Shown here: piece after piece, positions 2,079 to 49,337 of the stretch
Layout of the letters: each line of letters starts with the position of its first letter
Numbering within the stretch: the stretch's first letter is position 1
The notes under the pieces: model-generated
What the model saw: the letters and a program-made list of their open reading frames with translations, nothing else
Told to the model about the DNA's origin: nothing
Databases searched by the model: none
Program-made: the position numbers and the translations under genes
NCBI GenBank assembly: GCA_028712255.1
Contig: JAQTQJ010000002.1
Location: forward strand, 86,846 to 150,845
From: Candidatus Omnitrophota bacterium
Lineage (GTDB): Bacteria; Omnitrophota; Gorgyraeia; Gygaellales; Profunditerraquicolaceae
Direction: 5' to 3'
Length of the DNA: 64,000 nucleotides

Positions 2079-3131
2079 ATGAATCTAAAGATTTTGGAGC
2101 AGGTATTTTTCGGTAATCGTATTTTAGATTACATCATTGCTTTATTAACATTAGCCCTGGGCATACTCTTTGTTAAAGTTATTGTGCGTTTCATTATAGG
2201 GCGGCTTAAGAAATTTGCCAGGATGACTACTACAACTTTTGACGATTTATTGGCGGAGATTCTCGAGAGAGTTGTTTTGCCTGCTTTATTCATTAGCTGT
2301 TTCTATTTGAGTCTAAAGACTTTGAAAATGCCCTTGGTGATAAACGGGGTAATTAATGTCCTGCAGTTAGTATTAGTTACCTTTTTTGCCACGCGGGCGA
2401 TTGTTATGTTTGTCAGCCATAGCCTAAATATCTATTTAACAAAAAAGCAAGAAGATACCACAGTGGTGCGAAGTCTCAGTGGAATGTTAAATGTGATGAA
2501 GTTCTTAATTTGGGCAATGGCGGTTATAATTTTATTGGATAACCTCGGTTATAAAGTCTCCACAATCATTGCCGGTTTAGGAATTGGTGGCATTGCTGTG
2601 GCTATAGCTGCACAAGCCCTTTTGAAAGATTTCTTCAGTTATTTTTCTATAGTATTCGACCGGCCCTTTAAACTGGGAGATTTTATTATAATCGGTGACT
2701 TTATGGGTACAGTTGAGTATATTGGAATTAAAACCACGCGCATACGTAGCTTAGGAGGGGAGCAGGTAATATTTTCCAATACGGACCTAACGGATTCACG
2801 GGTCAGAAATTATAAGCTTATGGAGAAAAGGCGTATCTTATTCCGGCTAGGCGTAACTTATCAAACTTCTCTTGGCCAGCTAAAAGAAATGCCCAAAATT
2901 ATTGAGCGTATCATTAAAAACACTAAGGATGTTGCTTTTGACCGCGCGCATTTTTTCAGCTACGGCGATTTTAGCCTAATATTTGAAGTCGTGTATTTTG
3001 TTTTGAATCCCGATTACAACAAATATATGGATATTCAACAAGAGATTAATTTTGCGATTAAAGAGGAGTTTGAAAAACGCGGTATAGAGTTTGCCTATCC
3101 TACGCAGACACTTTTTGTAACTAAACAATAA
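2079..3131 (+). CDS. MscS-family small-conductance mechanosensitive channel
   Basis: N-terminal TM helices, pore helix GLGIGGIAVAIAAQ, beta-domain DFIIIGDFMGTVEYIGIKTTRIRSLGGEQVIFSN matching MscS core. Confidence 0.8.
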   Translation: MNLKILEQVFFGNRILDYIIALLTLALGILFVKVIVRFIIGRLKKFARMTTTTFDDLLAEILERVVLPALFISCFYLSLKTLKMPLVINGVINVLQLVLVTFFATRAIVMFVSHSLNIYLTKKQEDTTVVRSLSGMLNVMKFLIWAMAVIILLDNLGYKVSTIIAGLGIGGIAVAIAAQALLKDFFSYFSIVFDRPFKLGDFIIIGDFMGTVEYIGIKTTRIRSLGGEQVIFSNTDLTDSRVRNYKLMEKRRILFRLGVTYQTSLGQLKEMPKIIERIIKNTKDVAFDRAHFFSYGDFSLIFEVVYFVLNPDYNKYMDIQQEINFAIKEEFEKRGIEFAYPTQTLFVTKQ

Positions 3132-3176: not shown

Positions 3177-4304
3177 ATGAAGAAAATACTTCTTATTTCA
3201 TTTGAATATCCTACCGGCAAGTCATACTGTGGCGGCGTGGGCCAGATTGTAGAGCAGAGTAGGGATGCTCTTTTGGCTTTGGGTTATGAGACATATGTTC
3301 TTATAAGTTCTGGTTTTGCCAGGAAAGATCCCGTTAAGCTGCTGTTTTCAGATGGTTCCATAAAGAACTACCCTAATCTTGGTTCATTCCTAAGGGATTA
3401 TGACTGGTGTAATTTTGGCTATATAATCCATCATTTTGTTAATTGGACTAAAGAGCTTAAGAAGATTACGAGGCAAAAAGGAAGAAAGCCTAAGATTATA
3501 TATCATTTTCATAGTATATTAAGAAGAGAGAAAGAATCTGGATTTAGGACTTTAAACCACTTTTTACATAATCAGGAGAAAATGATTGAATTGGCAGATA
3601 GAATAATCTGTCCTTCTGCCTATGAATACGATAATTTTATCAGGTATTTCCCTTCTTTTATAGATAAGGTGGTTGTTATTGAAAATACGATTGAAGCCTT
3701 CAGTGCAGATAGAAAGAGAATGGAGGAGATAAGGGATAGGCATAAGATTAAAAAGAATGATATAGTTTCTCTCTATGTAGGCAGGCTTGAGAGAATAAAA
3801 GGGGCCCATATTTTGCTAAAGGAAGCGCCCAAGATTCTTAGGAAACAGCGGCATCTTAAACTTTTTTTTGTTGGGAGATCAATAGAGAAAGACCTATATA
3901 AGAAATTGTTAAGCGTATGCAGAAGGTTTCCCGGGCAGTTTTTCTATAAAAGGCATCTGGATAAAAACGAGTTGTTTCAGTATTATTATTTAAGCGATAT
4001 CTATATAAATAGCTCTTTAAGTGAGTCGTTTTCTTTGAGTACCCACGAAGGAGCATTTTGTGGTAGTTCATTGCTTTTAAATCGCCTGCCGGTCTTGGAA
4101 AAATTTAAGGATGCCGCGTTATTTTTTGACGCCAATAGTGGAGATTTTTCCGAAAAATACGATGTTTTGATAAGAAATCGTGTTTTAAGAAGAAAGCTTT
4201 CAAAAAGGGCAAGCGCGATTGCTGATAAATTAATTAGCAATAATAGGTTTAAAGATAACCTTTATAAGCTTCTTAATGGTTTTATGATCGAGAGTAAGAT
4301 TTAA
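3177..4304 (+). CDS. GT4-family glycosyltransferase
   Basis: GT-B fold; EX7E-like motif SLSESFSLSTHEGAFCGS; 375 aa. Confidence 0.65.
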   Translation: MKKILLISFEYPTGKSYCGGVGQIVEQSRDALLALGYETYVLISSGFARKDPVKLLFSDGSIKNYPNLGSFLRDYDWCNFGYIIHHFVNWTKELKKITRQKGRKPKIIYHFHSILRREKESGFRTLNHFLHNQEKMIELADRIICPSAYEYDNFIRYFPSFIDKVVVIENTIEAFSADRKRMEEIRDRHKIKKNDIVSLYVGRLERIKGAHILLKEAPKILRKQRHLKLFFVGRSIEKDLYKKLLSVCRRFPGQFFYKRHLDKNELFQYYYLSDIYINSSLSESFSLSTHEGAFCGSSLLLNRLPVLEKFKDAALFFDANSGDFSEKYDVLIRNRVLRRKLSKRASAIADKLISNNRFKDNLYKLLNGFMIESKI

Positions 4305-4651: not shown

Positions 4652-5284
4652 ATGGGATTAATATCGCTTTTGTTCAGTAATCCGGCTCTTTTTGTAATTC
4701 TGGCTGTCATACTTCTTTATTCGGTTATTTTACATGAAGTTGCCCATGGTTGGGTGGCGCATCTTTTTGGCGATGATACAGCTTTATATAACGGAAGATT
4801 GACTTTTAACCCTGCGTCACACCTTGATCCGATAGGTACGCTGATGCTTTTTCTGGTAGGATTTGGCTGGGCAAGGCCGGTGCCGGTAGATTACTCCAGA
4901 TTTAGTAATACTCGCTTCGGATTATTCTCTGTTGCCTTGGCAGGATGCTTAACGAACATACTCATCGCAGTAATTGCGCTGATTTTATTGCAATTTGATT
5001 TCATTAATGCTAATTCTGCCTTTTCGGTTATCCTGCCTATTGTCGTAAGGATTAATATTATTCTGGGAGCTTTTAATTTAATACCAATTCCTCCTCTTGA
5101 TGGCTCAAAGATACTCATGAGTTTTCTCCCCTACCAGGCACAAGAGAATCTAGCGAGCCTAGAGCCATATGGGTTTTTTATTTTAGTGATTTTGCTTTTT
5201 ACCGGTATATTGAATTCCGTGATAGCCTTTATGCAGAATTTAATTTACGGTATTATTAGCATATTGTTTAGTTTATTTAGATAA
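4652..5284 (+). CDS. small site-2 protease (peptidase M50 family) membrane metalloprotease
   Basis: HEVAHG zinc motif in TM helix, second motif LNLIPIPPLDG; 210 aa polytopic. Confidence 0.7.
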   Translation: MGLISLLFSNPALFVILAVILLYSVILHEVAHGWVAHLFGDDTALYNGRLTFNPASHLDPIGTLMLFLVGFGWARPVPVDYSRFSNTRFGLFSVALAGCLTNILIAVIALILLQFDFINANSAFSVILPIVVRINIILGAFNLIPIPPLDGSKILMSFLPYQAQENLASLEPYGFFILVILLFTGILNSVIAFMQNLIYGIISILFSLFR

Positions 5285-5644: not shown

Positions 5645-5738
5645 GAAATTAAGTGGTCCGGAGATAGCAAGTTGTTTCCGGAGGTGTTTCTTAGATGGTC
5701 GGGCCGCCATCTTGCATTTAATGCAGGGTGGTTTTTTT
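5645..5738 (+). ncRNA. candidate structured small RNA / terminator module, copy 1 (P1 hairpin UCCGGA...UCCGGA, P2 AGAUGG-UCGGGCCG-CCAUCU, terminal hairpin + U-run)
   Basis: own promoter-like TTGTAT-16-TATAAT at 5601-5628; paralogous copy at 12283-12362 with compensatory changes; ends in GGUGG+U7. Confidence 0.35.
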
Positions 5739-5755
5739 ATTTTAGGGGGCGATAA

Positions 5756-6318
5756 ATGGGCATTTCTTCAGCATTCTTTATTAATAATTTATTTGAAATT
5801 TTAGTTCCGGTTGGAATAATTATCTTAACTTTAATTTGCGGGTTTATTATAGGAAAAATTGTCTTTGTGCGTCTTAGTTACTGGTCAAAGCAGACTAAAA
5901 CTCAAATTGATGATATCGTTATAGACTCAATAATGTTGTATTGATTCCTAATGAGAAATTGACAAAAGCAATTGTTACCAATTATTACCTGCCGGAAAAG
6001 GAGATGATGGTTTTAGTAAATTTAGGGGTTCACTATAAAAGCGACCTAAAAGAAGTTGAGCAAATAACTTGTGAAGTCGCCAAGGAAGTCATGCAAGAAA
6101 TCCCCGGAGGCGTGCCTAAATTTGATCCGTTTATTAGTTATGGTGGTTTTGGGGATTCCAATATCAGCCTGACCGTTATTTTGAGGGCAAAGGAATTTGT
6201 AGGCCAATATTTAATTAAGCATGAATTTATAAAAAGGCTCCATGATCGTTATGCCAAAGAGGGCATTGTAATTTCTTATCCGATAAGAGCGATAAATTAT
6301 CAGCAGGAGGAGGAATAA
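5756..6318 (+). pseudogene. MscS-family channel remnant (frameshift at ~5941 plus loss of pore-helix/TM3 segment)
   Basis: 62-aa N-terminal TM fragment then, in another frame, the MscS beta-domain (IPNEKLTKAIVTNYY... cf. E. coli IPNGKIIAGNIINFS); together only ~187 aa versus ~350 aa for the intact paralog at 2079. Confidence 0.55.
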
Positions 6319-8550
6319 ATGAGACGACTACTCATATTTATATTGCCGATTTTGATTATTGTAGCCATTGGGTTTACGGTTTTTGGCATTATGCAAATCC
6401 GTTTTACTCAGGATAAATTGATGGATGATCTCCAAAAAAAGGCTAAAGCTGTTGCTGAAAGTATTGATTTTTCGGCAAAAACTATTCTTTTGAATAATGA
6501 TTTAAAATCCGCAAGCCGCCTTGTCGAGAGTTTCCAGAAGAGGGAGCGGCTGCAGGGGTGTATTATTTATGATAAGGAAGGAAAGGTTTTTGCGATTACG
6601 GAAAGATTCTCCGACTGGAAAGAGCAAGAAAAACCTTATCTTCAGGATATTCTGGCGAGTAAAACTCCCCGCGGAGTTTTGGAAAACTTCAAAGATTATG
6701 CGGTATATAGCTATATCATTCCTGTAAACGATGACGAAGGTAATATATTAGGAATGGTCGAAGTCATTTATGATACTTCTTATGTTTTTACGACGATGAC
6801 TGATCTCTGGAGGCGTTTGAGCGTCTCTTTAATATCTCTACTGGTCTTAATTGTATTGATAATGTTTTTGATTCAAAGGCAGATATTTACCCTGCCCGTT
6901 GTTAGGCTTACCAAGTGGTTCCAATATTTTCAAAGAGGGGAAACCGAGCAGGCGTATCCAATTAAAGGAAAAGATGAACTTGGAAAACTTGCGAGTGAAG
7001 TTGAGCAGGTAGCTTTAAGTTTAAGAGTGGCGCGTAAAGTTGTAAGTCAGAAGGCTACAGAGCGTATTGAGAAAGATGAGCTCTGGACTGAAAGCAAGCT
7101 CCGCGATCTTATTCACGCCCGCTTGGGAGAGAATGCCCTGTTTGTTGTGTCCAACAGGGAGCCTTACATGCATGTTATTGATGATGTTACCGGGCAGCCA
7201 AAGTGTATTAGGCCGGCCAGTGGTGTTGTTACCGCAATAGATCCAATATTGCGCGCTTGTGGAGGAACATGGGTTGGCCATGGTAGTGGAAACGCTGATA
7301 GGAAATTTGTAAATTCAAAAGATAAGCTTGGAGTGCCTCCCGGAGATAACCGGTATATTCTTAAAAGAGTTTGGTTATCTAAAGAAGAAGAGGAAGGTTA
7401 TTATTATGGTTTTGCTAATGAGGGATTGTGGCCTTTGTGTCATATGACGCATACAAGGCCGTTATTCAGAGAATCCGATTGGCAAATGTATAAAAAAGTA
7501 AATCAGAAGTTTGCGGATAGTATCTTGTCGGAATTGCCGGCAAAAAATCCTTTTGTATTTATTCAGGATTACCATTTTACTTTGCTTGCCATGATGATTA
7601 AAGAGAAACGTCCGGATGCAAGAATAGCTTTATTCTGGCACATTCCCTGGCCGAATCCGGAGGTTTTTTCAACCTGTCCGTATCATAAACAGATTTTGGA
7701 GGGTATGCTTGCCTGTGATTTGATTGGTTTTCATGTGCAAAGCCACTGCAATAATTTCCTTGAAACTTCAAATAGGTTGCTTGAATCCCGCGTTGATACA
7801 GAAAAATTCAGCATCGTTCGTTTGGGAAAGGAAACATTTGTCAGGGCGTTTCCCATAAGCGTTGATGGATATTTAAATCAAGGCAAGCAGGATTTAGGTT
7901 TAGCCGGTGAAATGGATAGAATCAAAAAGGAATTTGAATTGGAAGGAAAAATTGTAGCCATAGGCGTTGACAGAATTGATTATACAAAGGGTTTAATCGA
8001 GCGGATCCTTGCAGTGGATAGGTTTATAGAGAAAAATCCGCAATATAAAAACAAATTCGTTTTTATCCAGTTGGCCGCTCCCAGCAGGACGCACATTAAG
8101 CATTACCATGATTTAATGAATGAAGTTGATGAATTGGTAGAAAAAAAGAATTGGAAATACTCAGAAGGAGAGTGGCGTCCGATAGTTTATTTAAAAAAAC
8201 ATTTTTCTCCTGAGGAGATAAAGCCATATTATGCACTTGCCGACATATGTATTGTTAGCTCTCTTCATGATGGCATGAACCTCGTGGCTAAGGAGTATGT
8301 GGCATCAAAAAGCAGCCTTGACGGCGCGTTGATATTGAGCCGTTTTACCGGAGCTGCCAAGGAATTAACAGATTCAATTCTGATCAATCCTTACTCAATT
8401 GAAGAATTTTCGGATGCTATAAAATTAGCCATAGAAATGCCACTTGAGGAAAAAAGAAAACGGATGGAAAATATGCGCAAGATTGTTTCCGAGAATAACG
8501 TTTATCGCTGGGCAGGGAATATTGTTACAGAATTAACCGCATTAAAATAA
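6319..8550 (+). CDS. otsA: trehalose-6-phosphate synthase (GT20, OtsA) fused to an N-terminal TM-periplasmic sensor-TM-HAMP module
   Basis: C-terminal ~480 aa is canonical OtsA (LFVVSNREPY, IQDYHFTLLA, LFWHIPWPNPEVF); N-terminal 250 aa has two TM helices flanking a ~150 aa extracytoplasmic domain, then a HAMP-like amphipathic segment. Confidence 0.8.
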   Translation: MRRLLIFILPILIIVAIGFTVFGIMQIRFTQDKLMDDLQKKAKAVAESIDFSAKTILLNNDLKSASRLVESFQKRERLQGCIIYDKEGKVFAITERFSDWKEQEKPYLQDILASKTPRGVLENFKDYAVYSYIIPVNDDEGNILGMVEVIYDTSYVFTTMTDLWRRLSVSLISLLVLIVLIMFLIQRQIFTLPVVRLTKWFQYFQRGETEQAYPIKGKDELGKLASEVEQVALSLRVARKVVSQKATERIEKDELWTESKLRDLIHARLGENALFVVSNREPYMHVIDDVTGQPKCIRPASGVVTAIDPILRACGGTWVGHGSGNADRKFVNSKDKLGVPPGDNRYILKRVWLSKEEEEGYYYGFANEGLWPLCHMTHTRPLFRESDWQMYKKVNQKFADSILSELPAKNPFVFIQDYHFTLLAMMIKEKRPDARIALFWHIPWPNPEVFSTCPYHKQILEGMLACDLIGFHVQSHCNNFLETSNRLLESRVDTEKFSIVRLGKETFVRAFPISVDGYLNQGKQDLGLAGEMDRIKKEFELEGKIVAIGVDRIDYTKGLIERILAVDRFIEKNPQYKNKFVFIQLAAPSRTHIKHYHDLMNEVDELVEKKNWKYSEGEWRPIVYLKKHFSPEEIKPYYALADICIVSSLHDGMNLVAKEYVASKSSLDGALILSRFTGAAKELTDSILINPYSIEEFSDAIKLAIEMPLEEKRKRMENMRKIVSENNVYRWAGNIVTELTALK

Positions 8551-8568: not shown

Positions 8569-9566
8569 ATGTTTAACCAGTTGTTTCATCATTTAACTAA
8601 TGTGACTATACCTAACCTTAATGGATTGTTGTTGGGGGTAATTCTATTTGCAGGAACCATAGGGGGTAGGACATTTCAGCGGTTCAAAATACCTCAAGTG
8701 GTCGGGTATGTGGTTACGGGAATTTTACTTGGGCAGAGCGGTTTTAAGATTATAGAAAAAAACATGATTCAGGTACTTGTGCCATTTAGCTATTTTGCTC
8801 TAGGGCTTATAGGCTTTATGATTGGCGGAGAACTTAAGAAAGAGTCATTCCGCCGTTATGGAAAACAGTTTACTTTTATTTTGCTTGCCGAAGGATTAGG
8901 AGCTTTTATACTAGTTTCGCTTTTTTAGGTTTAGTGGGGCAGTTTTTCTTGCCCAAAGGCGTAAATTATTGGGTGTTGGCGTTATTATTGGGGGCTATAT
9001 CTTCGGCTACCGCTCCTGCGGCAACAGTAGATGTACTCTGATATAAGACAGCAGGGCCGCTAACAACCATGGTTTTGGGAATCGTAGCTATGGATGATGG
9101 ATTGGCTTTAGTTTTATTTGCCTTTGCTTCTAGTATAGCTGCGGTAATGTTAGGGGGGGGCACTCTTTAGGATTATCCTCTTTTGATATTAAGGAATGCA
9201 TCATTAAATAGCGTACTTGATACCTTCGCTAATAGTGATTACAATAATTATCCAGTTGTAGATAAAGAGGAAAGATTATTAGGAATTATAACCGCGGAAA
9301 GCATAAGAGCTGCCTTTAAGCATAAAGATTTGGAAAATCTTGTTGTAGCCGAAGATATTATGGAACCCGTTATTACATATAATATACGGGGCCAAGATTT
9401 ATTGCGTAAAGCCAATGAATATATGGACAGACATAATTTTGAATATCTACCCATAGTTACTGATGAGTCAAAAATCGTTGGATTTATAGGGAAAAGAATA
9501 ATAAACAAATTTATCTCTACGAGATTGATGGAAATTGAACAAAAAATTAAATCTTTAGAGAAATGA
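8569..9566 (+). pseudogene. degraded monovalent cation:proton antiporter (CPA family) with C-terminal CBS pair; the CBS part (9183-9566, TTG start) may still be expressed
   Basis: TM fragment 8569-8928, frameshift, then same-frame segments interrupted by in-frame TGA (~9040) and TAG (9168-9170) just after a G8 homopolymer (9153-9160); total far shorter than intact CPA transporters. Confidence 0.55.
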
Positions 9567-9572
9567 AGGCCA

Positions 9573-10379
9573 TTGATTAATATGAAGTATCTATTTAAAA
9601 ACTGGGATGGAATTAAAAAAGATCTAAGCGATAACTATATTTTACTTTTTTTAGATTATGATGGTACTTTGGCTCCAATTGTCAGTACGCCAGAGGAGGC
9701 ATCTATTTCGCCAGAGGTAAAGGATCTACTGAGCGAATTATCAAAAAATCTCAATTGCAAATTAGCTATTATTAGCGGCAGGTCATTAAAAGATATAAAA
9801 AATATTATAGGCTTAAAAGAGGTTATTTATTCCGGAAATCACGGTTTAGAAATAGAAGGCCCAAAGATTAAATTTGAAGCCCAGGTTTTACCACGATTAA
9901 AATTGGTTATTCGAGCTATTGCCGCGGATATGAAAAAGCGATTTTTAGGCATTAAGGGTGTACTAATTGAGGATAAGGGTTTGACTTTGAGTATTCACTA
10001 TCGTAAGGTTAGTAAGAAGGATATGCCTGTATTTGAGAAGATTATTTTTGAAGTTACTAATCCTTATGTAGCGGGCGATAATATAAAGGTTAATTCCGGT
10101 AAAAAAGTTTATGAGATAAAACCGCCTATTAAATGGGATAAAGGCAAGGTAGTTTTGTGGCTTCTTGCAAGGCGGCAATTTATTTCGGGAGAGAAGAATG
10201 TTTTACCGGTTTATATCGGAGATGATGTAACCGATGAAGATGTTTTTAAGGCTTTAAAAAGAAAAGGATTGACGGTGTTCGTGGGAGAATCCGGGGATTC
10301 CAATGCTGATTATTATTTAAAGAATACAGAAGAAGTAACTAAATTTTTACGCTTAATATCGGACTTAAAGCATAATTAA
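9573..10379 (+). CDS. otsB: trehalose-6-phosphate phosphatase (HAD family)
   Basis: LFLDYDGTLAPIV HAD motif I, GDDVTDED motif; adjacent to otsA. Confidence 0.8.
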   Translation: MINMKYLFKNWDGIKKDLSDNYILLFLDYDGTLAPIVSTPEEASISPEVKDLLSELSKNLNCKLAIISGRSLKDIKNIIGLKEVIYSGNHGLEIEGPKIKFEAQVLPRLKLVIRAIAADMKKRFLGIKGVLIEDKGLTLSIHYRKVSKKDMPVFEKIIFEVTNPYVAGDNIKVNSGKKVYEIKPPIKWDKGKVVLWLLARRQFISGEKNVLPVYIGDDVTDEDVFKALKRKGLTVFVGESGDSNADYYLKNTEEVTKFLRLISDLKHN

Positions 10380-10381
10380 TT

Positions 10382-11050
10382 ATGTCGGAATTAATAAAAG
10401 CAAAAGAACCGTTTAAATTTTGCACGAGATTGCATTTATCGGAACTTACCGGATTGCGTGCTAATACCTTAGGCCAACTCTTAGCTCTTATTAAGGAAGT
10501 GCCTGGTTCATGTATTTATCACCACACACATAGATTCTTGCAGCAGCATCAGTTTCTCTCACCTGAGCCTCCTAATGACTTTGCTTACTGGGTAACGGAT
10601 ATTTTGGGAGAAGATGAGCTTGGCGAAAGGTTAGTTAGTATTGACACTATACAATACTCAACTATTCGTGATTTACGCGAAAAGATTGCCTCGACCATTG
10701 AGAATTATTTGAATGATAACCCGTTGGCTAAAATGAGGTTTGCCCGCCAAGGAGAAGAATTCCATTTTATTAAATCAATAAGTTTTGTCCTGCCAACAAA
10801 CTATGTAGCCTATGATTTAGAAGAGTTTACAGAAGTTTTAAATAAAATAACCATAGATTCTATTTATTTCCATATTTTTGAAGCTCGCCTAAGGCTTGAA
10901 AAACCAACAAATGATTTTTCGTTCTGGATAGAAAATTCTCTGGGAGACAAAAAATTAGCAAATAGCATCGCAAGTTTCGATCCTTATACGAGCACATTAG
11001 AAGATCTAAGAAAAAAGATTATCCGTATAATCGAGAGGAAAATATCATAA
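10382..11050 (+). CDS. hypothetical protein with two tandem ~100-aa internal repeats, embedded in the trehalose cluster
   Basis: repeat NDFAYWVTDILGEDELGERL... / NDFSFWIENSLGDKKLANSI...; no assignable catalytic motif. Confidence 0.45.
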   Translation: MSELIKAKEPFKFCTRLHLSELTGLRANTLGQLLALIKEVPGSCIYHHTHRFLQQHQFLSPEPPNDFAYWVTDILGEDELGERLVSIDTIQYSTIRDLREKIASTIENYLNDNPLAKMRFARQGEEFHFIKSISFVLPTNYVAYDLEEFTEVLNKITIDSIYFHIFEARLRLEKPTNDFSFWIENSLGDKKLANSIASFDPYTSTLEDLRKKIIRIIERKIS

Positions 11051-11054
11051 TAAA

Positions 11055-12269
11055 ATGGCAAAATTAGAGGCATATATCCCTTTGGTGGGACAATCAGTTA
11101 TAGATGATTTGAGCCTCCTTGGGGAAAGATTGAAAGGTAAACTTGTCCAGCATATTAATTCTACTCCTGTGGGTGGGGGGGTTGCTGAGATATTAAACCG
11201 CATGGTGCCTCTGTTGATTGAATTGGGGGTAGATACCAAATGGGATGTAATAAAAGGCGGCGAACAGTTTTTTGGAGTAACAAAGAAATTCCATAATGCC
11301 TTACACGGTAGAGCAGAAGAGATAACCCAAAGAGATTTTGAAGTATTTATGGAAACAAGCCGACAGAATATTGAAAATATTGATACCTATGGAGAAATAG
11401 TCTTTGTCCATGATCCGCAGCCAATAGCACTGATAAAAAAGAAGACTGCTAATAAATGGCTTTGGCGTTGCCATGTTGATGTATCTGATCCTAATGAAAA
11501 GGTTTGGGGATTTCTTATGGATTTTATCACTCAGTACGACTCAGCAGTGTTTTCTGCTCCTGCTTTTTCACGGAAATTGCCAATAAGGCAATTCTTGATT
11601 CCGCCTTCTATTGATCCGTTAAGCGATAAAAACAAGGAGTTGCCGCAGGAAACGATTAATTCGGTTCTAAGAAAATATGATATCAAAAAAGATAAGCCAA
11701 TTGTCATGCAGATATCTCGTTTTGATCGCTTAAAAGATCCGTTAGGTGTAATTGACGCATATTTACAGGTAAAAAAATATATTGATTGTCAACTAGTGTT
11801 AGCTGGCGGTACTGCGGAGGATGACCCTGAAGGATTTAAAGTTCTAGATGAGATTAAAGAAAAAGCTAAGGATGATCCGGATATTCATATTTTACTATTA
11901 CCCCAAAACGACATAGAAGTCAATGCATTGCAAAGGGCATCAGATGTAATTGTTCAGAAGTCTCTAAAAGAAGGATTTGGTTTAACGGTTGCAGAGGCCT
12001 TGTGGAAAGCAAAACCTGTAGTGGCTTCAAATGTTGGAGGTATCCCTTTACAAATAAAACATAAGTATTCGGGATTATTGTGTCATTCTGTTGGAGGAGC
12101 AAGTTTCGCTATAAAACAACTCTTAAGCAGCCCGGAATACGCCAAGAAACTAGGAGAAAATGGGAGGGAACATATAAAAAATAACTTTTTGATTACGCGT
12201 CATCTTAGGGATTATATGCTATTGTTTCTTTCGTTATATCATTCTGAGGATATCGTTCATCTCTGTTAA
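11055..12269 (+). CDS. TreT-like trehalose synthase / GT4-family glycosyltransferase
   Basis: GT-B fold with GGGVAEIL-type N-terminal motif and C-terminal EGFGLTVAEALWKAKPVV, resembling archaeal/bacterial TreT. Confidence 0.6.
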   Translation: MAKLEAYIPLVGQSVIDDLSLLGERLKGKLVQHINSTPVGGGVAEILNRMVPLLIELGVDTKWDVIKGGEQFFGVTKKFHNALHGRAEEITQRDFEVFMETSRQNIENIDTYGEIVFVHDPQPIALIKKKTANKWLWRCHVDVSDPNEKVWGFLMDFITQYDSAVFSAPAFSRKLPIRQFLIPPSIDPLSDKNKELPQETINSVLRKYDIKKDKPIVMQISRFDRLKDPLGVIDAYLQVKKYIDCQLVLAGGTAEDDPEGFKVLDEIKEKAKDDPDIHILLLPQNDIEVNALQRASDVIVQKSLKEGFGLTVAEALWKAKPVVASNVGGIPLQIKHKYSGLLCHSVGGASFAIKQLLSSPEYAKKLGENGREHIKNNFLITRHLRDYMLLFLSLYHSEDIVHLC

Positions 12270-12282
12270 TTTATAATACGAG

Positions 12283-12362
12283 GGTTCGGAAGCTATTTAT
12301 TTCCGGAGGATTCAGATGGTCGGGCCGCCATCTTGCATGTGAATGTAGGATGGCGTTTTTTA
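12283..12362 (+). ncRNA. candidate structured small RNA / terminator module, copy 2
   Basis: TATAAT at 12272-12277 just after treT stop; P1 UUCGGAA/UUCCGGA (G.U-compensated versus copy 1), identical P2 AGAUGGUCGGGCCGCCAUCU, alternative GCCAUC/GAUGGC terminator + U-run. Confidence 0.35.
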
Positions 12363-12378: not shown

Positions 12379-12486
12379 ATGGATAAAGGAGTGCGTTTTA
12401 TATTTATTATAATGGGAGTTTGTATTTTGACAGGATATTGTATGGAATTTTTGCGACTACCCACAACATTAGATAAGGGGGTGTGA
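12379..12486 (+). CDS. small single-TM peptide 1 (35 aa)
   Basis: AAGGA RBS; MDKGVRFIFIIMGVCILTGYC...; first of four tandem micro-ORFs. Confidence 0.3.
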   Translation: MDKGVRFIFIIMGVCILTGYCMEFLRLPTTLDKGV

Positions 12487-12487
12487 A

Positions 12488-12625
12488 TTGAAGCTAAGCG
12501 GCTGGATATTTATGATAATTTCGTGGACATGTATTTTGAGTATGTTGGCCTTTTGTTACAATAGAATATTTAAAAAAGGCCTTGGAAGTGAGGATTCTAA
12601 AGTATTAAAGCGGCTTAAGGAATAG
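12488..12625 (+). CDS. small single-TM peptide 2 (46 aa from TTG, or 38 aa from ATG 12512)
   Basis: GGGGG RBS 7 nt upstream of TTG, overlapping previous stop; hydrophobic core then basic tail. Confidence 0.3.
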   Translation: MKLSGWIFMIISWTCILSMLAFCYNRIFKKGLGSEDSKVLKRLKE

Positions 12626-12991: not shown

Positions 12992-13306
12992 ATGGATAGA
13001 AACACTATTTCGCTCGTTCTTTTTGTTTTGGCCTACTTTCTGTTTGTATTATTCCCCAAGGAAAAAGGTTTCTGATTGCAATAATTACAGCCATATTATT
13101 TTTATTAACTAAAGCACTTTCATTTCCCCAGGCTTTTTACTCCATAAATTGGAATGTTATGGGAATATTTATTGGCACGTTGGTTGTTGCAGATACTTTT
13201 ATGGAAAGCAGAGCACCGGCGTATATCGCAGAAATCATTGTTAATCGCGCAAAAAATACCGCATGGGCCTATGTAATTGAAAAGATTGGTTATGAAACAA
13301 GCTAAA
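12992..13306 (+). pseudogene. N-terminal remnant of an ArsB/NhaD-family anion permease (frameshift after ~27 aa, truncated after ~100 aa)
   Basis: MDRNTISLVLFVLAYFLF... then frame shift to ...AFYSINWNVMGIFIGTLVVADTFMESRAPAYIAEIIV, matching ArsB/NhaD TM1-2; ends where the phosphoesterase remnant begins. Confidence 0.5.
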
Positions 13307-14609: not shown

Positions 14610-15545
14610 TCAAGTAACATTTTTAACCTCCTGTTCTTTGTGATATTTTAGCCAGTATTGATAGGGCGATAAGTTGTTTAATGCTTGATGCGGCCGGTAA
14701 AGGTTATAGAACCGTTCCCAGTTTGAGATCCGGTACTTCCAGGCATGAGGATTCTTAACCGGATTAAGGTTGTAGAACTCCTCATCATCAGTCCTGTGTG
14801 AGCGCTCAACCCTGCCGTTTGATTCAGGATGAGCCGTCCTATTGAGCCAATGACGGATATTCAGCCGTGCACACGCGCAAGTTAACGGATGATCAACCTT
14901 AAATGGGCCATAAGTAAACTCAACGCCATTATCAGTGCGCACGGTAGAGATTTTAAAGGGCAGCTTTTGTACTACCTCCTGTAAAAAACGGACTGTGTTC
15001 TGGGCAGATAGCTCATCGTAGATTCTGATTACGCGAAGCCTGGTAAAGCAATCAGTTGCAGTATATTGATAGAGCCGGTTAGGGAAGCCCGGTTTTGTAT
15101 CCAGGTACTTGGTATCCATTTGTACCGTATGTCCTGGATATGGCACTCGATAAGAGCGCATATTGCGTTTCTTCTTTTTGCGGTAGTGGTTACTCAATCC
15201 ATAACGCAATAACGTTTTATAGATGGCGTGCTCTGATACAAAGATGTCTCTCTTTGAGAGATAGAACTTAAGTCGTTTTGGCCCGTAATGCGTTCTTTTA
15301 CGAAGCCGAAGTATTGCTTTAGTTGTTTGTGGTTTTAAAGCCTTTGGATGTGGCGACTTAGGCTTATGGGATTGATCTAATAGCCCGTTGTTACCTTCAT
15401 GGTTAAATCTTTTGATCCAGCGGTAAACAGTTGTCCTTGAAGTACGGTATTGCCTGGCAATAACAGCAATCTTTAAGCGTTCTTTGTAGTCTTGAACCAT
15501 TAAATATCGTTGCCTGATGTAGAAGAGCTTGGTAGAATAAGTCAT
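14610..15545 (-). CDS. IS481-family transposase (HTH + rve integrase core, DDE)
   Basis: TTVYRWIKRF HTH; VQMDTKYL, ATDCFTR, RTDNGVEF, ESNGRVERSH core motifs. Confidence 0.85.
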   Translation of the reverse strand: MTYSTKLFYIRQRYLMVQDYKERLKIAVIARQYRTSRTTVYRWIKRFNHEGNNGLLDQSHKPKSPHPKALKPQTTKAILRLRKRTHYGPKRLKFYLSKRDIFVSEHAIYKTLLRYGLSNHYRKKKKRNMRSYRVPYPGHTVQMDTKYLDTKPGFPNRLYQYTATDCFTRLRVIRIYDELSAQNTVRFLQEVVQKLPFKISTVRTDNGVEFTYGPFKVDHPLTCACARLNIRHWLNRTAHPESNGRVERSHRTDDEEFYNLNPVKNPHAWKYRISNWERFYNLYRPHQALNNLSPYQYWLKYHKEQEVKNVT

Positions 15546-24972: not shown

Positions 24973-26100
24973 ATGTTTGAGCGTGCACGCGCGATCCTGA
25001 TAAAAGAGTTTAAACAAATTTTCCGTGATTCGCGGATGAAAACGATAATTTTTATCTCTCCGCTTATACAGATAGTCTTATTTGGTTATTCCGCAAATAA
25101 AGATATTACTTATGTGCCTACCGCAATTTACGATCGAGATAATACTTCAGAGAGTAGGGATCTTTTGCGCAAGTTCACATATTCTAAATATTTTGTCCCG
25201 GAGCATTATATTTTTAGCGATAAAGAGCAGGATCTTATGTTAGATAAGGGTTTAGTTAATACGGTTATCCGTATCGACCGCGGATTCGGCCGCGATCTCA
25301 ATGCCGGTAAAGACGCCAATATTCAATTAGTTTTTGACGGTACGGATTCAAACACAGCCATGGTTGTTATGGGTTATGCTAATACGATTATAAGCGATTA
25401 TCAACAAAACTTACTTAAGAATGAAGCGGAGGCAGCCGGGTTCTTAAACACTGTTCCCAGCGTAAAACTTCAGGACCGCGCCTGGTTCAATGGTAATCTT
25501 ATTTCAAGGAACTATTATTTACCCGGGGTAATCGCTACTATTGTTACGATGATGTCTCTTATGTTGACTGCCATGGCTATCGTTAAAGAAAAGGAAATTG
25601 GTACTATGGAGCAATTGACAGTTAGTCCATTGCGGCCGCTTGAACTTATTATAGGAAAGTTGCTGCCTTTTGGTTTAATTGCGCTTATTCAGGTTCTTCT
25701 AATTACCATATTGGGGGTGTTCTGGTTTAGTATACCTTTAAGGGGGAATGTTTTATTTTTATTATTTTCTACCTGCATATATTTATTTACTACTTTAGGA
25801 ATTGGTTTATTTATTTCGACGATATCCTCCACTCAACAGGAAGCGAATATGGCGGTTTTCCTTTTTTATTTACCTACAGTTTTACTTTCCGGATTTGCCT
25901 ATCCGATTGCCAATATGCCGCAAATTATTCAATGGTTTACGATTTTTAATCCTATGCGTTATTTTATGGTGGTTATCAGAAGTATCTTTTTAAAAGGCGT
26001 AGGTATGGATGTTCTTTGGCCACAATTGTTGCCGTTATTAATTATCGGTTTAACCGTTATTAGCTTGAGCGCTTTGCGGTTCAGGAGAAAACTTACTTGA
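24973..26100 (+). CDS. ABC-2 type permease (paralog)
   Basis: paralogous to 23684-24853. Confidence 0.75.
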   Translation: MFERARAILIKEFKQIFRDSRMKTIIFISPLIQIVLFGYSANKDITYVPTAIYDRDNTSESRDLLRKFTYSKYFVPEHYIFSDKEQDLMLDKGLVNTVIRIDRGFGRDLNAGKDANIQLVFDGTDSNTAMVVMGYANTIISDYQQNLLKNEAEAAGFLNTVPSVKLQDRAWFNGNLISRNYYLPGVIATIVTMMSLMLTAMAIVKEKEIGTMEQLTVSPLRPLELIIGKLLPFGLIALIQVLLITILGVFWFSIPLRGNVLFLLFSTCIYLFTTLGIGLFISTISSTQQEANMAVFLFYLPTVLLSGFAYPIANMPQIIQWFTIFNPMRYFMVVIRSIFLKGVGMDVLWPQLLPLLIIGLTVISLSALRFRRKLT

Positions 26101-26523: not shown

Positions 26524-27177
26524 GTGAAGAAATTTTTATGGATTTTTATATCTACGCTAATGTTTTTAGTCGCAGCACTTAATTTTTTTATTTATCAGTA
26601 CCGTCTTAACGATACTTTTAACCGAACTCGACAACGGCTAATCTCCATTGCTTCTAATGTCGTCCTTTCCATAGACGCACAGGAGGTTTTAAAAATACCG
26701 CTAGAGCAAAGAAGCGAAGGCACTCCGGAATATCTGGCTATTTATTATAAATTAGAAGAGATTAAAAATAAAAATTTACCCTTTGTAAAATATATTTACA
26801 TTATGACTACAACAGTGAAGCCGGGAATTTTACAATATGTAGTTGATGCTGATCCTGTCCCGCAGATAATAACAGCAAGGTGTCCTACGTCTCTACCTGG
26901 TGATAAATACGATGCCCGCCAGCTCCCTGAGATGCTGGAAGCTTATAATGCTCCTACTGCGGATAGAAAAATTACAACTGATGCGTGGGGTACATTTATT
27001 TCAGGATATGCACCTATTCGCGATACCACTGGAGTGACTATTGCGATACTGGGCGTAGATAGCGATGGTACTTCTATACAGATTATGCAAAAAAGTACCA
27101 AGACGCGCGGAATAATTGTATTATTTACAGGTTTACTATTTATTATTTCGTTTACGACTTTAATAAAATATCATTAA
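26524..27177 (+). CDS. stand-alone TM-Cache-like periplasmic sensor domain-TM protein with no cytoplasmic output domain
   Basis: periplasmic segment ends in DAWGTFISGYAPIRDTTGVTIAILGVDSD, typical of Cache domains, resembling the N-terminus of the histidine kinase at 49321. Confidence 0.45.
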   Translation: MKKFLWIFISTLMFLVAALNFFIYQYRLNDTFNRTRQRLISIASNVVLSIDAQEVLKIPLEQRSEGTPEYLAIYYKLEEIKNKNLPFVKYIYIMTTTVKPGILQYVVDADPVPQIITARCPTSLPGDKYDARQLPEMLEAYNAPTADRKITTDAWGTFISGYAPIRDTTGVTIAILGVDSDGTSIQIMQKSTKTRGIIVLFTGLLFIISFTTLIKYH

Positions 27178-27180
27178 TTT

Positions 27181-28443
27181 ATGAGAATTAATTTAATCTT
27201 AATATTATTTTGTTTAATCTGTTTTAACAGGGTATCTGCCGAGGAAAAACTTAATTGGGGTGATTGTATTAAAGAGGCTGCTAAGAATCACCCTGATTTA
27301 ATTGCTGCTTTGGAAACTGTTAAACAATCCGAGGCTTCTAAGCAGCAAACTGTAAGCGGCTTATTTCCTCAAATAACCGCGGATGCAAGTGGAACTAGAG
27401 CAAAAACTACAGGTAGCTCAGGCAGCACAACTACTGATACGTATAGTTATGGAGTAACTGGTACGCAGCTAATTTTCGACGGGGCCAAGACAATTAACAA
27501 TGTAAAGGCGGCTGCTGAAAACATATCTGCGGCAAAACAGGGTTTTAAATTTACCTCCACCACGGTTAGGTTTAGATTGCGTTCGGCGTTCATTGATCTC
27601 TTGAAAGCTCAGGAGTTGTTGCGTATTACTGAAGAGATTTATAATATACGTAGGGATAATTTAGAGTTAATTACTTTACGTTATAGTTCCGGGCTTGAAC
27701 ATAAAGGCGCCTTATTAACTGCCGAGGCGGATCTTGCTCAGGCAAAATACGGGATTTCCCAAAATAAGAGAGAAGTTGAGGTTGCCCAGAGAGAATTGGT
27801 TAAAGAAATGGGAAGAAAAGAGTTGACGCAGATATATGTTAATGGTGATTTCCAGGTAAAAGACAGTGCTGCAGAACAGCCTGATTTTACGAAATTGGCT
27901 AAAAACAATCCATCTTTACAACAACTTATTGCTCAGAAACGTTCAGCCGAATTTAGTTTAAAATCTACTTACGCTAACTTTTTTCCGGAACTTACCGGAA
28001 CTGCGGTGGCAAATAGAACAGGATCTCATTGGGCTCCCAGGCAAGATCAGTGGAGTTTAGGGTTAGGATTATCTTTGCCTTTATTTGAAGGTGGTTTAAG
28101 GATTGCGCAGGTTTCTCAGGCTAGTGCTTTAGTAAGGCAATTGAAGGAAAATCAGAGGAGTGCCTACGATGGAGCAATTTTGACATTACAGCAAACTTGG
28201 GCGTCTTTGCAGGATGCGATAGAAAATGTTTCTGTGCAGTATAAGGTGTTGATTGCTACGCAAGAACGTTCTAAGATTGCTCAGGCGCAATATTCAATCG
28301 GGCTGGTTAGTTTTGATAACTGGACGATCATTGAGGATAATTTGGTAAAAGCCAAAAGTAATTATTTAGATGCTCAAGCGGCTGCGTTGCTAGCCGAAGC
28401 AAAGTGGATTCAGGCCAAAGGGGAGGTTTTAGAATATGAATAA
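27181..28443 (+). CDS. TolC-family outer-membrane efflux protein
   Basis: signal peptide, two TolC repeats. Confidence 0.75.
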   Translation: MRINLILILFCLICFNRVSAEEKLNWGDCIKEAAKNHPDLIAALETVKQSEASKQQTVSGLFPQITADASGTRAKTTGSSGSTTTDTYSYGVTGTQLIFDGAKTINNVKAAAENISAAKQGFKFTSTTVRFRLRSAFIDLLKAQELLRITEEIYNIRRDNLELITLRYSSGLEHKGALLTAEADLAQAKYGISQNKREVEVAQRELVKEMGRKELTQIYVNGDFQVKDSAAEQPDFTKLAKNNPSLQQLIAQKRSAEFSLKSTYANFFPELTGTAVANRTGSHWAPRQDQWSLGLGLSLPLFEGGLRIAQVSQASALVRQLKENQRSAYDGAILTLQQTWASLQDAIENVSVQYKVLIATQERSKIAQAQYSIGLVSFDNWTIIEDNLVKAKSNYLDAQAAALLAEAKWIQAKGEVLEYE

Positions 28444-29407
28444 AAAATTAAAAATAGGTTTAATTGCCGTAGGAGTTTTGATTGTTATCGTTTTTATCGT
28501 GATGAAGTTTAAGCCTAAGGTGGATACGGATAGTGTTGTTAGAGAGATAAATCCTGTTCGCGGCTCAATCCAGGCGATTATATCGACTACCGGGACAGTT
28601 TTACCTAAAAACCGGCTTGAAATTAAACCTCCGGTTGGCGGACGGGTAGAAAGTGTTTTAGTTAAAGAAGGCCAAAAGGTTAAAGCAGGACAGATACTTG
28701 CCTGGATGAGTTCAACTGAAAGGGCGGCCCTTCTTGATGCTGCACGCGGCCAAGGGGAAGAAAAATTAAAATATTGGCAGGAGGCTTATAAACCAATAGC
28801 TTTGTTGGCTCCTATCAATGCAGAGGTTATTGTGGCTACGACTCAACCCGGGCAAACCGTAACTACCGCGGATGCAGTGGTTGTTTTGTCAGACAAGCTT
28901 ATCGCTCGGGCTCAGGTTGATGAAACAGATATAGGAAAAGTAAAGCTTGGGCAGAAAGCGATGGTTATTCTTGATGCTTACCCCAATACGAAGATTAAGG
29001 CTGCGGTTGAGCACATATATTATGAATCACAAACCGTAAATAATGTAACCATATATCCGGTTGACCTTCTTCCCGATAAAGTTCCGGAGTTTTTTCGTTC
29101 CGGGATGAATGCTACATTAGATTTTGTAGAGAAAAGTAAAGAAGATGTCCTGCTTGTTCCGGTGGGGGCTGTATATAGAGATAAACAAAAAAGTTTTGTT
29201 TTAATCAAAAAGGAAAACCAAGTTGAACCTGTGGTTCAAATGGTTGAATTGGGCATAACTGATGACAAAAATGTTGAGGTTATTTCCGGGGTTACCGAAA
29301 AAAATACGTTAATATTGAAAAATAAGCGATTTGTTCTTCCAAAAAGCAATACAGGCAGTAGTCCGTTTACGCCGTTTGGCCAGAAAAAAGAAGCGCCTAA
29401 AAAATAG
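28436..29407 (+). CDS. MacA-like periplasmic adaptor (HlyD/RND MFP family)
   Basis: TM anchor, lipoyl-like/beta-barrel domains; precedes macB. Confidence 0.75.
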   Translation: MNKKLKIGLIAVGVLIVIVFIVMKFKPKVDTDSVVREINPVRGSIQAIISTTGTVLPKNRLEIKPPVGGRVESVLVKEGQKVKAGQILAWMSSTERAALLDAARGQGEEKLKYWQEAYKPIALLAPINAEVIVATTQPGQTVTTADAVVVLSDKLIARAQVDETDIGKVKLGQKAMVILDAYPNTKIKAAVEHIYYESQTVNNVTIYPVDLLPDKVPEFFRSGMNATLDFVEKSKEDVLLVPVGAVYRDKQKSFVLIKKENQVEPVVQMVELGITDDKNVEVISGVTEKNTLILKNKRFVLPKSNTGSSPFTPFGQKKEAPKK

Positions 29408-48356: not shown

Positions 48357-49337
48357 ATGAAGAAAGAAGCTAGCTTTATTATTGGAATATTCCTGGTTTT
48401 GGTGGTTAGCGGCTGCGTTCAACAACCGAAAAAGCTAACAAAGGTTAATATTGCCTTCCAGTCTTGGGTAGGCTATGGCCCATTTTATCTGGGGCAGGAA
48501 AAAGGATTCTTTAAGGATGAAGGAATAGATTTAATCTTTGTGGATGAACAGTCGGATGGTGGCCGTAGGGATGCCTTTAAAGCCGGCATGCTTGATTGCG
48601 AGGCTGGGACAATTGATTTGTTGGTTTCTAAAAAATCCCAAGATACGCCAATCGTAGCGGTTCTGGAAATTGACCGTTCTTTTGGCGGCGATGCCGTAGT
48701 AGTAAATAAGGAGATTAAAAACCTGGAAGATCTAATTGGGAAAAAGATAGTTTTTTCTCGAGATAATGTCGGAGAGGCATTCATCGCGTATCTTTTTTAT
48801 AAAAACGGATTATCTCTTAAGGATATTACCATTGTTTCCTGTAGCCCCGAGGATGTAGCCTCCTCTTTTTTAAACGAAGATGCGGTTGCGGTAGTTACTT
48901 GGGAGCCATGGGTTTCTAAAGCCTTGAGCAAGCCGGGTGCTTATATTTTGATTTCTAGCAAAGAAGCCCCGGGTATAATTATAGATACTCTTAATGTCAG
49001 GGAACAGTTAGTGAAAAATAATCCTGAACTGGTTAAGGCTTTGATGCGGGCGTGGTTTAGGTCTGTAGGCTATTACAAAAAACATCCTGAGGAAGCAAAT
49101 CGAATTATCGCCAAGTATTTTAATATTAGTCCTGAAGCCTACAGTAGAAGCGTTAATAGTTTGAGATGGACTGAATATAAAGAACAGATTAATTTTGGAA
49201 AATCCGGGAAATGGCAGGAGGCATTTGATATAATTACCAAGATCAAATTTGAGAACGGCAGGATTACTAAAAAGCCAGAAGCAAATAGTTCCATAAACAC
49301 TATGTTAATTCAACAAATCTATGAAAATAGCCAATAA
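48357..49337 (+). CDS. ABC-type (NMT1/SsuA/TauA-like) periplasmic substrate-binding lipoprotein
   Basis: lipobox LVVSGC; NMT1-like fold; start at ATG 48357. Confidence 0.6.
   Translation: MKKEASFIIGIFLVLVVSGCVQQPKKLTKVNIAFQSWVGYGPFYLGQEKGFFKDEGIDLIFVDEQSDGGRRDAFKAGMLDCEAGTIDLLVSKKSQDTPIVAVLEIDRSFGGDAVVVNKEIKNLEDLIGKKIVFSRDNVGEAFIAYLFYKNGLSLKDITIVSCSPEDVASSFLNEDAVAVVTWEPWVSKALSKPGAYILISSKEAPGIIIDTLNVREQLVKNNPELVKALMRAWFRSVGYYKKHPEEANRIIAKYFNISPEAYSRSVNSLRWTEYKEQINFGKSGKWQEAFDIITKIKFENGRITKKPEANSSINTMLIQQIYENSQ

Follow-up and report, generated by a model that had tools for sequence, protein, structure and literature searches.

Locus and architecture of the fusion gene

The window analysed here is a 64-kb stretch of DNA from a Candidatus Omnitrophota bacterium (contig JAQTQJ010000002.1, assembly GCA_028712255.1), and all positions refer to it. 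At 6319..8550 it carries a gene which, from its ATG to and including the stop codon, encodes a fusion protein of 743 aa: a membrane sensor and a HAMP domain joined to a trehalose-6-phosphate synthase of the GT20 family. From the N- to the C-terminus the protein consists of a first transmembrane helix (TM1), a single-Cache/PDC domain of ~140 aa, a second transmembrane helix (TM2), HAMP, a conserved linker of 33 aa and a complete GT20 (OtsA) domain. A riboswitch of the nhaA-I class lies upstream of the gene. Genes for the trehalose-6-phosphate phosphatase OtsB, a DUF5752 protein and a TreT-like glycosyltransferase lie downstream. The fusion gene, the riboswitch and these genes are all located on the + strand.

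A preliminary description of this DNA had placed the gene at these coordinates, which coincide exactly with the ATG-to-stop frame, and the peptide quoted there corresponds to residues 170-229. It had proposed TM1, an extracytoplasmic domain, TM2, a HAMP-like segment and a canonical GT20 domain. This architecture is confirmed by Pfam, NCBIfam, hhalign and AlphaFold/Foldseek. In the domain search which it had suggested as a check, GT20 gave a strong match, whereas HAMP and Cache stayed below the curated cut-offs of Pfam.

For comparison, a genome scan with one genome per species was performed, which returned 576 relatives. The best 80 loci (L001-L080) were used as comparison set. Their matches span essentially residues 1-743 at 64-87% identity, and nearly all of them stem from metagenome-assembled genomes (MAGs) of Candidatus Omnitrophota from groundwater and sediment. 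A single uninterrupted frame across both modules is found in 78 of the 80 independent genome loci. A protein identical to the fusion is deposited at NCBI (MDD5108205.1), where it is plainly named ‘trehalose-6-phosphate synthase’. The Pfam annotations precomputed for over 100 close clusters mostly name GT20 alone, and a HAMP annotation (PF00672) is present on a few orthologues. Judged from these comparisons, the fusion is a genuine architecture that is already contained in public sequences, its sensor half being invisible in current annotation.

The N-terminal module and its relatives

TM1 (6328..6390, ~aa 4-24) is a hydrophobic stretch behind a cytoplasmic MRR. It is followed by the extracytoplasmic single-Cache/PDC sensor (6394..6813, aa 26-165), which is WalK-like according to profile comparison, Foldseek and sub-threshold Pfam matches. 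TM2 (6814..6879, aa 166-187), again a hydrophobic stretch, leads directly into HAMP (6880..7038, aa 188-240). The latter shows the expected layout of a helix AS1 with Pro/Gly ends (P193 to G207), a connector and a helix AS2 with a DExG start (D219-E-L-G) that includes E227, together with heptad hydrophobics. Across the family P193, W200, E227, A232 and A238 of HAMP are invariant and G207 is nearly so. Conserved residues of the sensor are R75, E76, G80, Y84, P135, G145, D152 and Y155.

The structure of residues 1-294 was predicted using AlphaFold. The predicted local distance difference test score (pLDDT) of the model is 79.8 overall and 79-93 in the PDC region. TM1 runs into a long continuous helix (2-59), followed by a domain of helices and a five-stranded sheet (62-152). 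A further helix (154-205) combines TM2 and AS1, and after a connector of 14 residues AS2 and its extension form helix 220-251, followed by helix 258-269. Between the two transmembrane helices the model hence shows the elements of a PDC fold, namely a long N-terminal helix, a five-stranded antiparallel sheet and flanking helices. The best Foldseek match is a full-length WalK model (269 columns, E = 3e-11). The crystallised extracellular domains of WalK (5is1, 7dud, 4ywz) superimpose with TM-scores of 0.72-0.74 and root mean square deviations of 3.1-3.4 Å (E = 5e-7 to 3.5e-6); the next matches are KinD, DcuS (TM-score 0.70) and CitA (0.71-0.80).

Sequence profiles lead to the same relatives. The N-terminal part of the NCBIfam model for WalK aligns to residues 5-241 (E = 4e-14), and several other sensor kinases with HAMP align to the N-terminal region as well. 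A search of the family profile against the PDB, based on sequence alone, retrieves the extracellular domain of WalK at E = 9e-6. The closest relatives of the N-terminal module without GT20 are classical histidine kinases of ~490-500 aa. They consist of sCache_3_2 or Cache_WalK, a HAMP domain scoring 43-58 bits and thereby above the cut-off, HisKA and HATPase_c. Aligned with hhalign, the profiles of the fusion family and of these kinases match with 99.9% probability (E = 5e-32) over 283 columns, spanning TM1, sensor, TM2 and HAMP and reaching into the helix that leads to the DHp domain of the kinases. Neither HisKA nor HATPase_c is matched anywhere in the 743 aa of the fusion protein by Pfam or NCBIfam. 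Taken together, these comparisons indicate that the N-terminal module is a bona fide sensor-kinase input composed of a single Cache/PDC domain and HAMP, with GT20 in the place of the kinase core.

The preliminary description had also likened the periplasmic domain to two other proteins of the window, which does not hold. The protein encoded at 26524 aligns with BLASTP at E = 2.0 and is without Pfam match at E <= 1. The kinase at 49321 has a double dCache_1 sensor (~245 aa, residues 37-281), and its HAMP segment alone aligns weakly (E = 0.005). As to the surroundings of the former, a putative stand-alone Cache protein (26524-27177), it is flanked by an ORF (open reading frame) of 136 aa and by the long ORFs 27181-28443 and 28436-29407. 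The 136-aa ORF comes after a multi-pass membrane protein (24973-26100).

Conservation and spacing across the junction

The family-specific linker is encoded at 7039..7137 (aa 241-273). AS2 extends into it to ~250, followed by a break at W256-T257 and the helix 258-269. A246 and L261 do not vary across the family, and W256, T257 and L269 vary little or not at all; this holds down to its most distant members.

Among 73 orthologues mean identity to the window protein is highest in GT20 with 0.77, followed by HAMP with 0.69, the periplasmic domain with 0.64 and the linker with 0.62. For the closest pair the nonsynonymous divergence (dN) is 0.08 for the periplasmic domain, 0.06 for HAMP and 0.07 for both linker and GT20, at a synonymous divergence (dS) of ~1.4-1.8. 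Synonymous sites are saturated even in the closest orthologues (dS ~1.4 to >3, undefined for several pairs), so dN/dS ratios are rough and only the closest pair is quoted. According to these values the sensor is under purifying selection and clearly not decaying.

The spacing of conserved residues was compared in 215 sequences, 54 of which show less than 40% N-terminal identity and some less than 30%. From G145 to P193 the distance is 48 residues in 208 of the 215 sequences. It is 29 from E227 to W256 in 202 and 22 from W256 to S278 in 213 of them. Length varies in the HAMP connector alone, at 32-37. The helical registers are thus fixed to the residue, which is expected if rotation or piston motions are passed on as in HAMP-kinase junctions and which is needless for a tether. 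The helix spacing stays near-invariant in members under 30% identical, and selection on the sensor is purifying; the N-terminal module therefore more likely transmits a signal than merely anchors the enzyme. The layout of a signal-transducing receptor, as put forward in the preliminary description, gains support from the kinase-input homology, the HAMP hallmarks and this conserved geometry.

The GT20 domain

The catalytic domain of OtsA type is encoded at 7138..8547 (aa 274-743). Pfam Glyco_transf_20 (PF00982) matches residues 274-740 with E = 2e-123 and 413 bits (cut-off 32.5), covering positions 3-472 of the 473 positions of the profile. The E-values of its matches to solved OtsA structures in the PDB lie between 1e-83 and 1e-61. 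When the domain is aligned pairwise with OtsA of E. coli K-12 MG1655, all eleven active-site residues checked are identical, namely R10, G23, Y77, W86, D131, H155, R263, K268, R301, D362 and E370 in the E. coli numbering that counts the initial Met. These correspond to Arg9, Gly22, Tyr76, Trp85, Asp130, His154, Arg262, Lys267, Arg300, Asp361 and Glu369 of the E. coli active site in mature numbering.

A motif of its own distinguishes the family. SNREP at aa 278-282 (7150-7164) is almost invariant, being present in 211 of 215 fusion-family sequences, whereas at this position E. coli OtsA has SNRIA and other OtsA enzymes have SNRLP or SNRIA. E281 in this motif is invariant, family-specific and located near the phosphate-binding Arg. 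With the PRK14501 model the domain scores 481 bits (cut-off 634). The protein represents a diverged subfamily, whose residues and context point to the function of a trehalose-6-phosphate synthase. No second GT20 gene is present in the 64-kb window.

Distribution of the fusion family

An exhaustive HMMER search with residues 1-274 as query yielded 146 clusters (50% identity) at E <= 1e-10. Among the representatives long enough to judge, 32 clusters continue into GT20, and the total is therefore at least 32. The junction between sensor and GT20 in these 32 representatives lies at residue 266-337, mostly at 270-277. Distant full-length fusions of 739-761 aa have N-terminal halves that are just 23-30% identical to the window protein. 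Some carriers of the fusion bear NCBI names from MAGs of Acidobacteriota, Elusimicrobiota (Elusimicrobia) and Planctomycetota. A search with the N-terminal 294 aa gave only partial proteins; the genome scan supplied full-length members, as did the search of representatives and a second search.

Longer variants of the fusion occur as well. In P0132 (913 aa) the extracytoplasmic sensor region is duplicated ahead of HAMP and GT20. P0403 and P0405 (826-827 aa) belong to a cluster with members named from MAGs of Acidobacteria/Terriglobales.

We found no description of a Cache-HAMP-GT20 protein in the literature searched, an absence which is no proof for all literature. The genome papers on Omnitrophota that were found mention merely ‘trehalose synthesis’.

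Riboswitches of the nhaA-I class

Upstream of the fusion gene lies an aptamer of the nhaA-I class (Li+-I / Na+-II type) at 5654..5712. It scores 45.7 bits with Rfam RF03057 (gathering threshold 37) and 69 bits with a covariance model of our own, which was built from eleven nhaA-I copies. A terminator scan predicts a hairpin with T-run at 5706..5742, consisting of a stem of 12 pairs (5706..5732) and the following TTTTTTTATTT. A second riboswitch of this class is located at 12282..12333 (Rfam 47.3 bits, threshold 37), 13 nt past the stop codon of the TreT-like gene. According to the same scan its terminator spans 12326..12355 and is followed by a T-run, the element extending to 12365.

In both cases the terminator shares the sequence GCCATC with the 3’ arm of the aptamer stem P2. 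Ligand-bound aptamer and terminator would hence be mutually exclusive, as expected for an ON switch which acts by anti-termination. Members of the nhaA-I class have been reported as Li+-responsive (Li+-I), and rare variants with a terminator platform overlapping the aptamer as Na+-responsive (‘Na+-II’) (PMC9646797). The latter are marked by a C instead of U at the equivalent of D. propionicus nucleotide 54 and by selective Na+ binding, and were reported in Deltaproteobacteria only, before genes of unknown function (PMC9646797). Both RNAs of the window resemble them in passing the Rfam threshold and in having a terminator that overlaps the aptamer. They differ in that Omnitrophota commonly carry the motif and that it stands before a defined trehalose operon; the ligand class here is a predicted one. 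Based on this comparison, the ligand of the riboswitch would be a cation, probably Na+. An occasional association of trehalose-6-phosphate synthase genes with the nhaA-I class has been noted before, along with the suggestion of a Na+/osmotic role (PMC9646797).

Our covariance model detects 49 copies in the 80 related loci, every one on the strand of the fusion gene. Their position was counted in those 74 loci in which 400 nt or more are available upstream. About 44 of these have an nhaA-I RNA upstream of the fusion, either alone or with MscS. It lies 8-103 nt ahead of the fusion start in 23 loci, while in 12 it is more remote, an intact MscS gene lying between the two. Of these 12 loci, ten have the RNA directly before MscS, ~1.1-1.4 kb from the fusion start, and in the other two (L006 and L030) it is situated ~2 kb further up. 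Other upstream distances, from 423 nt to 6.4 kb, account for 9 loci, and in 30 of the 74 the model finds no nhaA-I RNA upstream. Examples are the copies at 7894-7953 in L001 and 7841-7898 in L011 as well as the tandem copies at 7230-7289 and 7373-7424 in L008. The second copy of the window is shared by L002, L010 and L076, where it lies 17-18 nt behind the TreT frame. The preliminary description had envisaged control at the enzyme level rather than transcriptional control. This exclusion is contradicted by the riboswitch and terminator ahead of the operon, an arrangement which recurs in about 44 of 74 related loci.

Behind the second riboswitch (12379-12625) two tiny hydrophobic ORFs of 35 and 45 aa are found, neither of which has a Pfam match. 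Past this riboswitch no ORF of at least 50 aa starts before position ~13.1 kb, and the single + strand ORF of at least 90 aa within 12.3-13.7 kb starts at 13277. The gene under the second riboswitch is possibly no longer present, or it may code for a small membrane protein.

The operon and surrounding genes

The conserved gene order is sensor-OtsA, OtsB, DUF5752 and TreT-like GT4 glycosyltransferase, with OtsB in last position in some loci. OtsB of the window (9573..10379) scores 171 bits with TIGR00685 (cut-off 68) and matches Pfam Trehalose_PPase at E = 6.5e-45. The gene is present downstream of the fusion in 70 of the 80 loci. It is followed by the DUF5752 gene (10382..11050; Pfam PF19027, E = 6e-70), which is kept between OtsB and the TreT-like gene in 63 of the 80 loci and for which no mention was found in the literature searched. 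The TreT-like GT4 glycosyltransferase (11055..12269) matches Pfam TreT_GT1 (E = 2e-53) and Glycos_transf_1, while the NCBIfam model for TreT gives 373 bits and thus stays under its cut-off of 775. A TreT-like gene is present in 60 of the 80 loci.

Two further genes of the locus are broken. Directly upstream of the fusion gene lies the remnant of an MscS-type channel gene (5756..6318), composed of the fragments 5756..5944 and 5941..6318. It was detected by tblastn, and the second fragment additionally matches Pfam MS_channel_3rd. With the intact orthologue of 351 aa from L063 as query, only residues 15-60 and 223-350 are matched, in two frames. An intact MscS gene (~350-390 aa) stands directly upstream of the fusion in 25 of the 80 loci. 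Between otsA and otsB the window holds the remnant of a gene for a Na+/H+ exchanger with CBS domains (NhaP; 8569..9566), fragments of which match Pfam Na_H_Exchanger and CBS. The intact homologue of 565 aa from L055 matches by tblastn with residues 25-145, 116-201 and 438-564, again in two frames. This insertion is missing from most related loci, where otsB directly follows otsA.

Some features lie outside the operon. An intact MscS paralogue (2121..3113) is 28% identical to the operon-type MscS. A GT4 glycosyltransferase is encoded just upstream of the locus at 3177-4304, and an ORF at 4652-5284 contains a HEVAHG motif, which we take as suggestive of a metalloprotease of the M50/site-2 type. 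An IS481-family transposase with helix-turn-helix domain and rve integrase core lies at 14610-15545 on the - strand. In its vicinity (~12.4-14.5 kb) only short or fragmentary ORFs are found, and together with the transposase this region fits local gene decay or rearrangement.

Proposed mechanism

With moderate confidence we propose that the gene encodes a receptor-type trehalose-6-phosphate synthase, in which an extracytoplasmic cue gates GT20 via HAMP, and that it belongs to a riboswitch-controlled stress operon. The fusion protein would reside in the inner membrane, probably as a homodimer. A cue from outside or from the envelope would be perceived by its WalK-like single-Cache domain and relayed through TM2 and the HAMP four-helix bundle to the linker, which as a rigid element of fixed length would tune the activity of the GT20 (OtsA) domain at the C-terminus. 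Such a protein would have originated from the input module of a histidine kinase, the DHp/ATPase core of which was replaced by the enzyme. It would constitute the first enzyme of a salt/osmotic-stress operon composed of riboswitch, MscS in some loci, sensor-OtsA, OtsB, DUF5752 and TreT-like glycosyltransferase. Transcription of the operon would be turned on through anti-termination by the cation-sensing, probably Na+-sensing, riboswitch of nhaA-I type. Trehalose synthesis would then be gated twice: the cytoplasmic cation level would act on the RNA, and an extracytoplasmic signal on the enzyme. On the sequence evidence control appears to be layered in this way, the RNA level being complemented, probably, by the enzyme level. 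That the signal alters the catalytic rate, and the direction of this change, are steps that we infer.

We give roughly even odds to a more specific statement, i.e. that the fusion represents an undescribed one-protein ‘receptor glycosyltransferase’. Here a Cache sensor, HAMP and a linker fixed in register would allosterically gate a metabolic enzyme of GT-B fold. Solute synthesis would be switched within seconds, on top of a Na+ riboswitch that licenses transcription.

Several points weigh against the proposed gating. That control acts at the enzyme level is read from sequence comparison and predicted models. In the full-length AlphaFold monomer the pLDDT drops to 56-63 in HAMP and linker. Pfam sCache_3_2 matches residues 31-149 with 23.3-25.7 bits and hence below its cut-off of 28.4, dCache_1 reaches 21-23 bits (cut-off 45) and CHASE8 is sub-threshold as well; at E < 0.01 sCache_3_2 is matched by 24 of 46 family members. 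HAMP (PF00672) stays at 17.5-19.6 bits on residues 191-236 (cut-off 25) and is matched at E < 0.01 in just 7 of 46 members. We know of no established small-molecule ligand of WalK-type extracellular domains, nor of an established route by which a dimeric HAMP controls a GT-B enzyme, unlike the case of kinases and cyclases. The active site of GT-B enzymes lies within one chain, between two Rossmann-like domains. Furthermore the locus is partly decayed in the source genome, since the flanking MscS and NhaP genes are broken. Finally, the OtsA equivalog model TIGR02400 gives 430 bits and misses its cut-off of 564.85, so that substrate specificity is deduced from context.

The low HAMP and Cache scores and the lack of a known mechanism connecting HAMP to GT-B enzymes would also agree with an N-terminal module that is a relic of a sensor kinase, passes on no signal and now just anchors or dimerises OtsA at the membrane. 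A passive tether of this kind might site trehalose synthesis near channels or transporters or serve local membrane protection, and the RNA-level switch of the operon could already explain regulation. However, a tether needs neither the conserved extracytoplasmic fold nor the invariant HAMP hallmarks. Nor does it require a linker that keeps its exact length, residue by residue, in members less than 30% identical, and the dN of sensor and HAMP is as low as that of the enzyme. We therefore regard a mere tether as unlikely, although it is the strongest of the alternatives.

Less probable still is a GT20 domain with a different chemistry, e.g. the synthesis of glucosylglycerol phosphate, or a non-catalytic one that binds a ligand like the TPS-like subunits of eukaryotes. 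The missed TIGR02400 cut-off agrees with this, as do the SNREP motif in place of SNRLP/SNRIA, a score of 311 bits with the model of the glucosylglycerol-phosphate synthase GgpS (TIGR02398) and the second trehalose route (TreT-like) encoded in the operon. But this GgpS score is lower than those of the OtsA models, the substrate-binding and catalytic residues of OtsA that were checked are identical (11/11), and a trehalose-phosphatase above the equivalog cut-off is encoded downstream in 70 of the 80 loci.

The last alternative is an artefact of assembly or annotation, in which a sequencing error deleted the stop codon between a truncated sensor and otsA; an assembly artefact had been named in the preliminary description as one of the cases that would refute the fusion. 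Errors or decay do exist in this contig, as the frameshifts or deletions in the adjacent genes demonstrate. But the identical junction recurs in one uninterrupted ORF in 78 of 80 independently assembled genomes of related species, at least 32 diverged clusters (50% identity) share the fusion, and few parts of the protein are as conserved as the junction region. This explanation was therefore rejected, and its probability is negligible.

Comparison with known systems

Histidine kinases of the WalK (YycG) or sCache-HAMP type share with the receptor-type synthase the layout of TM1, single Cache/PDC, TM2 and HAMP, and homology is demonstrable. In contrast to them, the fusion lacks DHp, the catalytic ATPase domain, the phospho-acceptor His and an evident partner response regulator. 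Its output is a metabolic glycosyltransferase of GT-B fold, joined at the point at which a kinase would enter its DHp helix.

The OtsA enzymes that have been characterised are soluble, measure ~450-500 aa and are regulated by allosteric metabolites or ions or by transcription. With OtsA of E. coli (1GZ5/1UQU) and mycobacteria (5JIJ) the fusion shares the full-length GT20 domain, the active-site residues checked and OtsB downstream. It differs by a transmembrane receptor module of 273 aa at the N-terminus and by the family-specific SNREP.

Receptor enzymes coupled by HAMP include class III adenylate cyclases (such as Rv3645), HAMP-GGDEF diguanylate cyclases and HAMP-PP2C phosphatases. They follow the same logic, as a transmembrane sensor and HAMP control a fused catalytic domain in one protein. 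However, what they make or destroy is a signalling molecule, and their activity is set by the geometry of the dimer interface. The output of the fusion would instead be a bulk metabolite, i.e. the precursor of a compatible solute, made in an active site within one subunit.

The TPSP-GT-MSC operon of Thermoproteus tenax resembles the locus in another respect: genes for a trehalose enzyme, a GT4 glycosyltransferase and an MscS-type channel are transcribed together, and synthase activity is controlled post-translationally through complex formation (PMC3634074). There a separate soluble glycosyltransferase acts as partner of a TPS-TPP fusion; a membrane sensor and HAMP are lacking and no riboswitch is reported. 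By analogy to the TPSP-GT complex of T. tenax, the DUF5752 protein or the TreT-like glycosyltransferase might be protein partners of the synthase described here.

Significance

The novelty of the fusion lies in the combination of the known Cache-HAMP input logic with GT20, an output class without precedent. The outputs of HAMP and Cache receptors known so far, namely kinases, chemoreceptor arrays, nucleotide cyclases and phosphatases, all serve signalling. If the proposed mechanism is true, bacteria would couple an environmental sensor to a biosynthetic enzyme directly, with neither phosphorelay nor transcription in between. HAMP could moreover control an active site within a single subunit, a mode of coupling which is not known from kinases, cyclases or chemoreceptors. 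How HAMP would control a GT-B fold, the active site of which lies off the dimer interface, would be a new and concrete question of structure.

For osmoadaptation the locus would provide a compact and testable system with two separable layers, the cation riboswitch and the receptor-enzyme. It also offers a physiological target for the nhaA-I class, for which a link to trehalose had been noted without explanation (PMC9646797), and renders the association with trehalose-6-phosphate synthase concrete and, in Omnitrophota, frequent. For these uncultivated bacteria the operon would represent a widely conserved stress module. The fusion family is large, with members in at least 80 species from a single scan and in no fewer than 32 clusters (50% identity).

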